Source: an uncultured Nitrospiraceae bacterium
GTDB lineage: Bacteria; Nitrospirota; Thermodesulfovibrionia; Thermodesulfovibrionales; Dissulfurispiraceae
NCBI GenBank assembly: GCA_963705105.1
Contig: CAVPIW010000012.1
Location: 288,001 to 352,000 of the forward strand
DNA: 64,000 bases
Direction: 5' to 3'
The notes beneath the pieces are model-generated. The model had not been told where the DNA came from. It saw only the letters and a list, made by a program, of their open reading frames with translations, and did not search any database. Below are positions 14,552 to 35,993 of this stretch, piece by piece. Numbering within the stretch: the stretch's first letter is position 1; every line of letters starts with the position of its first letter. The translations under genes and the position numbers were made by a program.

Positions 14552-15922
14552 GAGGTAAGATCAAAAAGTGTGTAAATGAGTGAGAAGGCGGTGTATCCTT
14601 AATCAGTTGACCTGGAATCAACAAAGAGAAAGGAGACACCACCATGGACAAGAGTATCACCGAGGCAGTTGAGCCGTCAAGGGCGACGTACGAGGCATTG
14701 GAAGGGATAGTTCGGCAGAGAGTCCAGGAATACATTCAAGACATACTGGAAGAGGAAGTCGAGATCTTTCTAGGGAGGAAGAAATCCGAGAGGATCAAGA
14801 AGGTGGATAGCAAGCGGGGGTATTGGAACGGACACGGGAAGGGGAAGAAGTTCACGCTGATGAACGGGACGATCACGGTCCGACGGCCCCGTGTGCGGGG
14901 AGCGGAGGAGCGATTTGAGAGCAAGGTCCTGCCGTTATTCATACGTCGGTCAAAAGAAGTGGGGCAGTTACTGCCGGAATTGTATCTCCACGGACTGGCG
15001 CAGGGGGATTTTGATTTAGCGCTTCGGGGGTTATTGGGAGAAGGGGCGCCGCTGTCGTCCTCGTCGATCCAGCGGCTGAAGGGCAAATGGCAGTGCGAAT
15101 ACGACGAGTGGAAGGCTCGGGATCTTTCCGGGCTTGAGGTCGTCTATCAGTGGGCGGACGGGATATACGTGAAGGCCGGGTTGGAGAAAGACAAAGCAGC
15201 ATTGCTGGTGATCATCGGGGCGTTGGTTACGGGGGAAAAGATCCTGCTGGCCTGCGAGAGCGGGTATCGGGAGAGCAAGGAATCCTGGGCAGGGGTCCTG
15301 AGGGATCTGACCGCTCGGGGACTGAAGCTGGGCACATTGACGGTTGCCGATGGTCATTTGGGGATATGGTCAGCGTTGGGAGAGCTTCATCCCGAGGGCA
15401 AGGAGCAGAGGTGTTGGAACCATAAGATAACCAACGTGCTGGATGCGATGCCCAAGAGGATACGTGCCGAGGCAGGCGAGTATCTCACCAAGATCCCCTA
15501 TGCAGAGACGCAGGCAGAGTGTGAGAGGCTCAGGGACAGCTTTATCAGCCGGTATGGGAGGGATTTTCCGAAGGCGACGGAGACCCTGAGGAGAGATTGG
15601 GAGCGAATGGTGACGTTCTATTCATTGCCGAAAGAGCACTGGGTGCATATCAGGACGACCAATGTGGTGGAGTCACCGTTCAGCGCGGTGCGTTTGAGAA
15701 CGGATGCGGCGAAGCGGTATAGGAAAGTCCAAAACGCGACGGCGATGATCTGGAAGTTGCTGGGAGTCGCTGAGAAGAGATTCCGCAGGCTCAAGGGATA
15801 TTGGTTACTGAGGGATGTCCACGAGGGGAAACTCTTCACAGACGGCATTGCCGTCGAGCAGGAAGAGTCTGTCGAAAGGTTCGCCGCCTGATGGCTTTTT
15901 ACACACCTATTGACATGACCTC
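14552..15922 (+). mobile_element. IS256-family insertion sequence
   Basis: IRs GAGGTAAGATCAAAAAGTGTGTAAA / TTTACACACCTATTGACATGACCTC; perfect 8-bp TSD TTGGGTAG (14544-14551, 15923-15930). Confidence 0.92.
14644..15891 (+). CDS. IS256 transposase
   Basis: LYLHGL, WADGIY, VADGHLG, QRCWNHK, RTTNVVES motifs. Confidence 0.95.
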   Translation: MDKSITEAVEPSRATYEALEGIVRQRVQEYIQDILEEEVEIFLGRKKSERIKKVDSKRGYWNGHGKGKKFTLMNGTITVRRPRVRGAEERFESKVLPLFIRRSKEVGQLLPELYLHGLAQGDFDLALRGLLGEGAPLSSSSIQRLKGKWQCEYDEWKARDLSGLEVVYQWADGIYVKAGLEKDKAALLVIIGALVTGEKILLACESGYRESKESWAGVLRDLTARGLKLGTLTVADGHLGIWSALGELHPEGKEQRCWNHKITNVLDAMPKRIRAEAGEYLTKIPYAETQAECERLRDSFISRYGRDFPKATETLRRDWERMVTFYSLPKEHWVHIRTTNVVESPFSAVRLRTDAAKRYRKVQNATAMIWKLLGVAEKRFRRLKGYWLLRDVHEGKLFTDGIAVEQEESVERFAA

Positions 15923-27710: not shown

Positions 27711-28067
27711 CTATGCGCCGATGTTGAGCCAGACGTCGGTTTCCGCCATAGTCCGGAAAAGTCCCCTGAGAGAGCCGACGTCCGTACCCGGGAGATAATC
27801 GTCCTTCACCGCACGGCGAAAGTTCAGGCATCCCCCTCAGAGGTACACCTTCAGTCCTTTCTCAATAAGCGCGGAGAACCACTCCCCGGCATTGGGAATC
27901 CCCTTTGCCTTTTGTCCCTTCAGAAAGCAGTAGACCCCGTCTCCCGACGCGATCAGGTTGACCGCATGCCCTTTTGTCAGGGCCGACTCCGCAATCCTGA
28001 TTGCCGTCAGGGTGTTTTGAGACGAATAAGGAGATGTGGACAAAAGGATCGTAAAGGTCTTCTTCAT
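27711..28067 (-). CDS. DsrE/TusD-family sulfurtransferase, probable selenoprotein (TGA 27839-27837, VYL-U-GGC)
   Basis: SPYS, GDGVY; read-through GGCLNFRRAVKDDYLPGTDVGSLRGLFRTMAETDVWLNIGA* gives a full-length 118-aa DsrE ending 13 nt before dsrF. Confidence 0.85.
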
Positions 28068-33295: not shown

Positions 33296-33709
33296 ATGGC
33301 CTACGAGGTGCTCGACATATCCGGCGATGCGGGAATACGCTCCTGCGGTGCAGGCTTCGAAGAGGCCCTGGCGGAAGCCGCCGTCGGCATGTTCAGCCTC
33401 ATCACGGATATCGGTCAGGTCCGGGAGGTGCGCTCCATCGACGTGCACGCGTCGGCCGATACGCCTGAGGCCCTCGTCGTCGGTCTCCTGAACGATATGG
33501 TCTTTCACTTCGACACCTACGGTTTCATCGGCAGGAGAGTCGAGATCATCGACCGGGACCGGTCATCCATCAGGGCGAGGGTTTACGGAGAGGAATTCGA
33601 TGCCGAGAGGCATGAGAGCCGCCTCCTCGTCAAGGCTGCGACATTCCATGACATAAGGGTCGCAGATGCCGGTGACCACTGGGAGATTGAAGTCGTCTTC
33701 GACATTTAG
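33296..33709 (+). CDS. Archease
   Basis: YEVLD.SGD, VKAATFH, terminal VVFDI; adjacent to rtcB. Confidence 0.9.
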
Positions 33710-33720
33710 GAGGTGCTGAG

Positions 33721-35166
33721 ATGGCAACGGAGAAATTGAAGAGAATAGACGCCAGCAGACTGGAGGTCCCGAAGGATTACAAGCCCGGCATGAGAACAAG
33801 GGGCATCATCTATGTCGACAGGAAACTGGAAGAGCTGCTCGAAGCCGGGTCGATCGAACAGGTCGCCAATGTGGCGACCCTGCCGGGCATCGTCGGGCCC
33901 TCTCTCGCAATGCCGGACATACACACCGGGTACGGGTTCCCCATCGGCGGCGTTGCCGCCTTCGACCTCGACGAGGGGATCATATCGCCGGGAGGCGTGG
34001 GATACGACATCAATTGAGGAGTGCGGCTCCTCAGGAGCAACCTCACCCGCGACGAGGTTGTTCCGGGATTGAAGGGCCTCGTGGAGGTCCTCTACAACAC
34101 CATTCCGGCGGGAGTCGGATCAAAGGGAAAAATCCGGATCGACAGGGACGTGCAGAGGCGCCTGCTTGTGCGGGGCGCCCGCTGGGCTGTCGAGGAGGGG
34201 TACGGGTCGCCGGCGGACCTTGACCATACGGAATCGGGCGGCTGTATCGACGGCGCCGACCCGGACGTTGTGAGCGAAAAGGCCTATGAAAGGGGAAGGG
34301 CGCAACAGGGCACTCTCGGGTCGGGGAACCACTTCCTCGAAGTCCAGTATGTCGATGAGATATACGATGAGAAGGCCGCCGATGCCCTCGGGCTGTTTAT
34401 CAACGGTGTGACGGTCATGATCCACTCCGGTTCCCGCGGTTTCGGCCACCAGGTCTGCACCGATTTCCTGGAGGTCATGGAAAGGTCTGTCAGCAAATAC
34501 GGATTCGACCTTCCCGACCGTGAGCTCGCCTGCGCTCCATTCCGGAGCAAAGAGGCTCAGAGCTATCTTGCCGCAATGAGGGCGGCGGCCAATTATGCCT
34601 GGGCGAACAGGCAGTGCCTCATGCACTGGACGAGGGAAGCCCTCATGACCTTCTATAGCCGGTCCCCACGGGATCTCGGCATGCACCTCGTCTATGATGT
34701 GGCGCACAATATCGCGAAAGTTGAGGACCACATCGTCGAAGGGAAAAAGCGCAGTCTGATCGTCCATCGAAAGGGCAGCACCCGTGCATTTCCGCCCGGT
34801 CACCCGGAGCTGCCCGATGCTTACCGGAACACGGGACAGCCGGTCCTTATCCCCGGTGACATGGGCAGGGCTTCTTTCGTCCTCCTCGGCACAGGCCGGG
34901 CGATGGAGGAAACGTTCGGCTCCACCTGCCACGGCGCAGGCAGGGTGATGTCGCGCAACCAGGCGATCAGGCAGGCGAAGGGACGGGCCATCTGGCGTGA
35001 AATGGAGGACAGGGGCATCATCGTGAGGGCCGCGGGCCGGGGCATCCTGGCGGAAGAAATGTCCGAGGCATATAAGGACATCTCCGATGTCGTCGACGTC
35101 GTACACAATGCGGGCATATCGACGAAAGTGGCGAGACTGAGGCCGCTGGGTGTCGTCAAGGGATGA
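33721..35166 (+). CDS. rtcB: RNA ligase RtcB, probable selenoprotein (TGA 34015-34017, GYDIN-U-GVR)
   Basis: The two ORF-track pieces are one frame split only by [46 protein letters not shown] intact. Confidence 0.9.
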
Positions 35167-35993
35167 GAGACAGGCTGCGGATCGGGAAAATTCCCTATCT
35201 CAATCTTTTCCCCGTCTTTCGCGTGCTTCAGCGGGACTGCGACTGCTCCGCCTACGATTTTATCGAGGGTGTGCCGTCGCAGGTCAACAGGATGCTGAGG
35301 TCGGGTGAGATCGACGTGAGTCCTTCGTCATCCATTGAGTACCTGCGCAACCCCTCCCTGTACGAGATCGTCGAAGGCCATTCGATCAGCTCGAAAGGCC
35401 CGATCGGCAGCATCCTCCTTTTCAGTCGGCGGGACATCGCCGATCTGGGAGGCGTGAACATCACCGTCACCGCTCAGTCGGAGACGTCGATCGGCCTGCT
35501 CGCCGTCGTGCTGACTCAATTTTTCGGAATTGAACCGCCTCTGGAGATTTCTCAAAGACCGGAACGGTCCGATGCCGATGCATTCCTCCTCATCGGAGAC
35601 GACGCCCTCAGACAGAGGCGCATGATTGCGGACACGGGGGAGACGGGGGAGCGGTCCTGCCGGGGGTTGAAGGTCTATGACCTGGGAGAGATATGGTTCG
35701 AACGGACGGGTCTGCCTTTTGTCTTTGCCCTCTGGATCGCCCGGAGGGATGTGACCCGGGAAACGGGACCTGTCCGTGACCTCTATGAAAGATTTCTGGC
35801 GGACATGGAAAGGGTGGGCAGAACAGCCCCCGGTGAATTCGGGTCCCTTGCCGCGGAAGCCCCGCTCAGGGAACATATGGAAGAGTCGGAGATCGTCTCG
35901 TACTGGCGGCAGATCGACTACGGGCTCACCGATGAAAGCAGAAAGGGCCTCAGGCTCTTCAAGGAGTTCCTGGACAGGATCGGGTACCTTTGA
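35163..35993 (+). CDS. mqnA: Chorismate dehydratase (futalosine pathway)
   Basis: IPYLN..P, SSIEY, SETS, LLIGDDAL, DLGE.W..TGLPFVFALW. Confidence 0.88.
   Translation: MRDRLRIGKIPYLNLFPVFRVLQRDCDCSAYDFIEGVPSQVNRMLRSGEIDVSPSSSIEYLRNPSLYEIVEGHSISSKGPIGSILLFSRRDIADLGGVNITVTAQSETSIGLLAVVLTQFFGIEPPLEISQRPERSDADAFLLIGDDALRQRRMIADTGETGERSCRGLKVYDLGEIWFERTGLPFVFALWIARRDVTRETGPVRDLYERFLADMERVGRTAPGEFGSLAAEAPLREHMEESEIVSYWRQIDYGLTDESRKGLRLFKEFLDRIGYL

Follow-up and report, generated by a model that had tools for sequence, protein, structure and literature searches.

The known systems nearest to the gene considered here are archease-dependent RtcB RNA ligases, namely the enzyme of Pyrococcus horikoshii (PH1602; PDB 1uc2, 4dwq, 4isz), Thermus TTHA1785 and human RTCB. 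Cys98 of RtcB binds both Mn2+ ions, with Asp95 and His203, and His234 and His329, as the other ligands (PMC10630183, in its accessible portion), and the same cysteine is presented, in the accessible sections of PMC13247085, as an oxidation-sensitive weak point that animals guard with PYROXD1. Selenocysteine (Sec) has a lower pKa than cysteine and can resist irreversible oxidation (PMC13188914). It has been placed at this very position in the same enzyme family by engineering: P. horikoshii RtcB-U98, made in E. coli by artificial UAG recoding, is reported to self-cleave spontaneously near the Sec (Haruna et al., 2014; PMC4150793, in the part available, which gives no ligase activity), whereas the gene considered here is natural. 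In nature, formate dehydrogenase alpha and [NiFeSe] hydrogenase combine a UGA at a metal-binding Cys codon with a downstream hairpin and the selABCD genes, as seen here, but these are redox enzymes, while RtcB performs nucleotidyl transfer at a binuclear Mn site (PMC13188914).

The DNA analysed, hereafter the window, is a stretch of 64,000 nucleotides from an uncultured Nitrospiraceae bacterium (assembly GCA_963705105.1, contig CAVPIW010000012.1), whose features around rtcB are collected in Table 1.

Table 1. Features of the archease-rtcB-mqnA region, in window coordinates.
Feature	Position	Strand	Basis or remark
Archease gene, RtcB activator	33296..33709	+	PF01951, E 7.7e-33; 11 nt before rtcB start
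rtcB, 481 aa if UGA99 is read through	33721..35166	+	PF01139; the genome's sole rtcB
In-frame TGA, likely Sec99, at the Mn-bridging Cys of GxDINCG	34015..34017	+	Alignment; conservation in relatives
SECIS-like long hairpin	34030..34067	+	Covariation in TGA alleles; loop fails canonical rule
His404 codon, guanylylated nucleophile, 3' of the UGA	34930..34932	+	Aligned to P. horikoshii His404
MqnA-like menaquinone-biosynthesis gene	35163..35993	+	PF02621; overlaps rtcB stop (ATGA)

The original prediction, made from the letters of the window, held that two annotated pieces form one rtcB frame broken by TGA at the metal-binding cysteine and that all other RtcB motifs are intact, and both points stand. 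The frame comprises 481 codons and a terminal stop, and its sole internal stop, at codon 99 (context GYDIN*GVR), falls opposite Cys98 of P. horikoshii RtcB in a full-length, almost gap-free alignment (PDB 1uc2, E 2e-180). Scored with C for U, the read-through product, the only match across the genome, covers positions 1-426 of the 426 of PF01139 with 587.8 bits (E 2e-176). It retains the metal and GMP ligands D66, D96, N203, H204, H235, H329, N330, K351, H404 and K480. With Pyrococcus RtcB it shares the Asp, His and Asn ligands and His404 as well as the adjacent archease gene (PMC3973293, accessible part); archease, to which the original prediction coupled the ligase, lies directly upstream. 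The Mn-bridging cysteine that the family requires is the exception, its codon being TGA, and the gene is therefore classed as an RtcB variant rather than an ordinary member; it differs from the Pyrococcus gene also in its conserved mRNA hairpin and in the lack of an intein at the junction (NF038162, 767.6 bits against a cut-off of 1150, with no insertion). Among the 120 matches listed from the protein collection, the window gene appears only as a 381-aa piece (P0067); the named homologs, 76-79% identical, mostly carry Nitrospirota labels, many of them Thermodesulfovibrionales, and 117 of the 120 database homologs listed have Cys at the position, the remaining three giving no motif match. The contig carries, at another place, a gene of the rtcA family, and the window also holds an intact 415-aa frame (14644-15891, +) that resembles an IS256-type transposase.

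The TGA recurs far beyond this genome. An RtcB match is present in each of the 60 relatives searched; in 19 of them the codon is TGA, verified in every case. A search of GTDB with G(Y/F)DIN*G, a pattern that itself selects for TGA, returned 120 loci from 18 of 64 collection parts (about 430 stretches estimated in total), 102 of them rtcB with TGA at the codon (three duplicating other rows over a 60-nt stretch) and 18 of them chance matches; the record titles include Nitrospirota, Desulfobacterota-type deltaproteobacteria, Acidobacteriota, Binatia, Eisenbacteria, Gemmatimonadales and Planctomycetota. In unselected samples, 51 of the 55 matches from the class of G079 carry one TGA, which lies at this codon in 28 of 30 loci that were fetched, and TGA is seen in 3 of 30 from the class of G099. 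A shorter pattern, run on the phylum to which the bacterium belongs, matched 49 of 135 genomes within its class and 10 of 266 from the rest of the phylum; seven of these ten hits were fetched, and none was rtcB. Two copies are found in some genomes, one TGA and one TGC in relative G054 (L246, L247) and both TGA in G148.

Gene callers cut rtcB into 98 and 381 aa, which would suit a UGA99 that is a true stop, be it in a pseudogene, in a split gene whose second part begins anew at GTG 34021, or through assembly error. Against this, the same TGA codon occurs in over 100 genomes from several phyla, and the TGA genes show no decay: 70 of 71 full-length ones lack any other stop, all 71 keep nine further active-site residues unchanged and 70 keep His235, His404 is His in all 71, and downstream of the UGA in 11 TGA relatives pN is 0.13-0.16 against a pS of 0.64-0.91 (both uncorrected). 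A split product, moreover, would be without an essential ligand in a genome with no other rtcB. Assembly error is countered by independent contigs, since those from public runs X1, X2, X3 (DNA) and X17 (RNA), from four studies, keep TGA rather than TGC or TGT at codon 99; they are assembled contigs rather than raw reads, the window itself may derive from X1 or X3, and they carry no information on expression level. Two further RNA contigs, X16 and X18, span the codon with 2 and 1 differences at unlisted places and were left out of the count. The conservation of the TGA, the lack of other stops, the preserved active site and the low pN together exclude nonsense mutation or decay. None of the three outcomes that the original prediction had named as refuting it was observed: public contigs retain the TGA, the genes for Sec insertion are all there, and relatives preserve the codon ahead of an intact half under purifying selection. 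A true stop at UGA99 is hardly credible.

Behind the UGA lie two types of hairpin, a canonical one outside Nitrospirota and a longer stem in the lineage of the window. Under the canonical bSECIS rule (a G in the first two loop positions and a spacing of 16-37 nt; PMC13188914), 90 of 92 distinct non-Nitrospirota TGA alleles have an element, versus 6 of 27 Cys alleles, and in nearly all the TGA alleles its loop begins 20-22 nt downstream. Three of the six SECIS-positive Cys alleles bear the same hairpin and are placed among TGA alleles in trees, a pattern that fits recent reversion.

In the window itself, the 11-bp stem first noticed (34034-34044/34054-34064) is present and covaries among relatives, but it is not a canonical SECIS. 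Flanked by a bulged A (34033) and three outer pairs, this correctly spaced stem closes a 9-nt loop (34045-34053, ACCCGCGAC) that misses the canonical G, and the sole alternative is a weak element of 4 bp with two G-U pairs. Folded alone, the hairpin gives z = -1.70, with 12 of 200 shuffles folding as well, which is not significant; the stem reaches significance only when alleles are compared. Across 35 Nitrospirota-type TGA alleles, 86.6% of cells are paired against 82.7% in shuffles (43-60% in slid controls), and 22 double changes occur against 4.6 in shuffles, with none of 500 as high, a control that related sequences can exceed even when they lack structure. The 18 Cys alleles are 60.4% paired and show no excess of double changes. 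The best hairpins average -22.5 kcal/mol in 12 TGA alleles versus -11.3 kcal/mol in the 18 Cys alleles, and the TGA alleles show less synonymous divergence in their hairpin codons. The canonical test is passed by 14 of the 35 Nitrospirota-type TGA alleles, near the 40% background, and by 11 of 13 other hand-picked UGA genes of the genome, whose canonical elements are no shorter than 5 bp (background 20%). Family scans support the labels of selD, two molybdopterin enzymes, DsrE and CYCXC within this set of 13; the remaining labels are our own assignments from motifs. A subset of selenoprotein genes is known to fail the bSECIS model (PMC13188914), and the long Nitrospirota hairpin may represent a SECIS class missed by current predictors.

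The non-canonical loop, together with the mqnA start that overlaps the rtcB stop, also admits a reading in which the long hairpin inserts Sec inefficiently and the UGA serves as a selenium-dependent throttle on RtcB and the coupled mqnA. Yet mqnA follows rtcB in 16 of 18 Cys alleles as well as in 19 of 27 TGA alleles of the Nitrospirota type, and in none of the non-Nitrospirota alleles tested; by gene order, mqnA is an inherited neighbour, not one specific to the Sec form, and such a throttle is improbable. Archease, for its part, adjoins TGA rtcB in 66 of the 67 loci with flanks outside Nitrospirota and in 25 of the 27 that are of the Nitrospirota type.

The machinery for Sec insertion, on which decoding of UGA99 would depend, is encoded in full: selA, selB and selD score above their cut-offs, and selC is present as a tRNA-Sec(UCA). 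The selD gene itself contains one TGA. A selA search covered 50 of the 120 pattern loci. It gave a match in 28 of 32 TGA-rtcB genomes picked by hand from outside Nitrospirota, and in 2 of the 18 chance hits, all of which were included as a control. One genome lacking a selA match (G104) has selB and tRNA-Sec; in the other three of the 32 (G087, G101, G107, of completeness not given), selA, selB and tRNA-Sec were not found, and the rtcB of G101 is the full-length TGA gene with extra stops. Among close relatives, selA is near-universal (59 of 61 genomes) while only 19 of 60 have the TGA, so that its presence does not tell which allele a genome uses.

A reassigned tRNA offers another way to read the codon. 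Transfer RNAs of the selC* kind, tRNA-Cys with a UCA anticodon, are known from Thermodesulfovibrio and can decode UGA as Cys (PMC5389517, in the portion available), and the genome does contain a 96-nt selC*-like tRNA-Cys (L002 1497-1592, -, equivalent to G000:C10:176596-176691) that scores above the tRNA-Sec cut-off. Read in this manner, UGA99 would yield an ordinary enzyme by an unusual route. The anticodon of this tRNA, however, is GCA, not UCA, and it was rejected as a UGA-to-Cys reader on that ground; tRNA-Sec is the sole UCA tRNA called in the genome, no second selB scores above the cut-off, many TGA-rtcB relatives have a single tRNA-Sec-like gene, and ten such matches checked in relatives comprise eight Cys(GCA), one Tyr and one Sec(UCA). 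Because the anticodon is GCA here and likewise in eight of ten cases among relatives, decoding as Cys is very improbable. The genes flanking the 96-nt tRNA are presumably those of a rhodanese-like protein and a dehydratase-subunit-like protein. Elsewhere in the assembly, an array of 23 tRNA genes (G000:C4:10181-12340) is largely redundant with tRNAs outside it and might belong to a mobile element or a mis-binned contig.

The original prediction also pointed to two further Cys-to-TGA genes in the window, and family scans confirm both: a DsrE-like UxxC gene (27711-28067, -, TGA 27839-27837) with a canonical 8-bp SECIS, and a CYCXC (seleno)protein gene (about 260-655, +, TGA 554-556) that exceeds the NF041379 cut-off, each from a known family. 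Outside the window, a frame of more than 500 aa at G000:C10:51332 (-) contains RICGV*T and a 9-bp canonical SECIS; from its motif we take it to resemble the large subunit of a [NiFe] hydrogenase whose N-terminal CxxC contains Sec. Further in-frame TGA candidates lie at C16:45705 (-), C6:152544 (-), C6:886025 (+), C6:758464 (+), C12:101917 (+) and C6:766176/767824 (+), with coding signal on both sides and, in most, canonical hairpins; the first (G000:C16:45705, motif QKQSG*EKCPG) may be missing from the 119-family catalogue. A molybdopterin oxidoreductase match (G000:C14:38355-40019, -) carries one in-frame TAG.

A tree built without the Sec column from 92 of the 124 distinct full-length sequences nests Cys alleles among TGA alleles and needs 11 state changes. 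With 95 of 150 distant representatives included, two TGA-containing clades emerge, each with support of 1.0 and matching the two hairpin types, and they join at a support of only 0.80; TGA rtcB may hence have arisen once, with later remodelling of the SECIS, or twice. The repeated reversion to Cys suggests that the gain from Sec is modest or depends on selenium supply.

The codon lies at a site where the family also hosts inteins. One relative (G045; L250, G045:C1:359200-362400) has an rtcB intein exactly before the metal-binding residue, and this allele, the sole intein allele among the relatives, has Cys, not TGA. An allele with both intein and UGA was not found among 42 metagenome pattern hits, none of which was rtcB, or among 40 phylum hits fetched, which comprised 23 intein-free TGA rtcB and 17 chance matches; 38 intein junctions in database proteins have Cys, in a database that cannot hold UGA alleles and for a narrow pattern. 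Inteins followed by Sec at +1 were thus absent from the metagenome, phylum, relative and database sets alike.

This setting bears on an explanation in which Sec is inserted and the Asn98-Sec99 junction, the family intein site, then cleaves to give a two-chain or short-lived enzyme. The engineered P. horikoshii U98 protein produced a cleaved C-terminal fragment (PMC4150793, accessible part), and the natural gene shares its D-I-N-U-G context. The residues that track the TGA state most closely in relatives comprise hairpin codons 112 and 116, among others, but no metal ligand, and no protective amino-acid change near the Sec is evident. On the other side, the U98 fragment could stem from handling in air or from translation that restarts behind the stop, and natural TGA alleles have been retained across phyla under purifying selection. 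Junction cleavage is judged unlikely, if less so than the other alternatives, and it alters the mechanism, not the decoding of UGA. In the boldest form of the idea, the Asn-Sec bond would cleave itself to make a two-chain or self-limiting ligase, and Sec alleles would exclude the intein.

The reading we prefer, with a probability of roughly 0.9, is that UGA99 is decoded as Sec in an archease-linked RtcB whose selenolate would bridge two Mn2+ ions in place of the Cys thiolate. SelB and Sec-tRNA(UCA) would bind the hairpin and insert Sec despite its non-canonical loop. That loop, set beside the canonical elements of most other UGA genes in the genome, and the three distant TGA genomes in which no Sec genes turned up count against the reading. 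By homology, Sec99 would then hold the two Mn2+ together with Asp96, His204, His235 and His329, the pairs Asp96/His204 and His235/His329 making up the rest of the two metal sites, as family knowledge suggests. Archease would promote guanylylation of His404 (by homology; PMC3973293, accessible part), after which GMP would pass to an RNA 3'-phosphate and attack by a 5'-OH would seal the broken RNA (by homology; PMC13247085, available sections). As for why selenium is retained, we infer protection from oxidation as the preferred reason: Cys would be the oxidation-prone weak point and Sec would resist irreversible oxidation, the weakest step of the scheme. Cleavage of the engineered RtcB-U98 counts against simple stabilisation by Sec.

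RtcB is absent from the 2026 table of 119 prokaryotic selenoprotein families, the text of which contains neither rtc nor ligase (PMC13188914), and from the available portions of the main texts of deep-Sep (PMC12013277) and BSepDB (PMC13326102). Of the four NCBIfam models that matched, not one describes a seleno-RtcB, and literature searches confined to non-subscription papers gave Sec in RtcB for the engineered protein only. The TGA form of RtcB is real and widespread, and it is probably an undescribed Sec variant. With nearly the same assurance as for the decoding of UGA99, we regard it from comparative sequence evidence as a widespread, unannotated selenoprotein family that arose within one archease-type branch of RtcB, in which Sec would bridge the binuclear Mn of a universal RNA ligase and decoding would be directed by two hairpins unrelated to each other, one of which would form a SECIS class specific to its lineage. 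Sec as a metal ligand, which the original prediction had proposed, has precedents in formate dehydrogenase and [NiFeSe] hydrogenase; the unusual feature would be that the Sec bridges two Mn ions at a site without redox function in a nucleic-acid enzyme. The reading would also mean that rtcB is split or missed in many genomes. Natural Sec/Cys RtcB pairs of 75-80% identity provide a direct test of why Sec is kept over Cys, and, if the reading is true, a nucleic-acid enzyme without redox chemistry would join a mostly redox selenoproteome.
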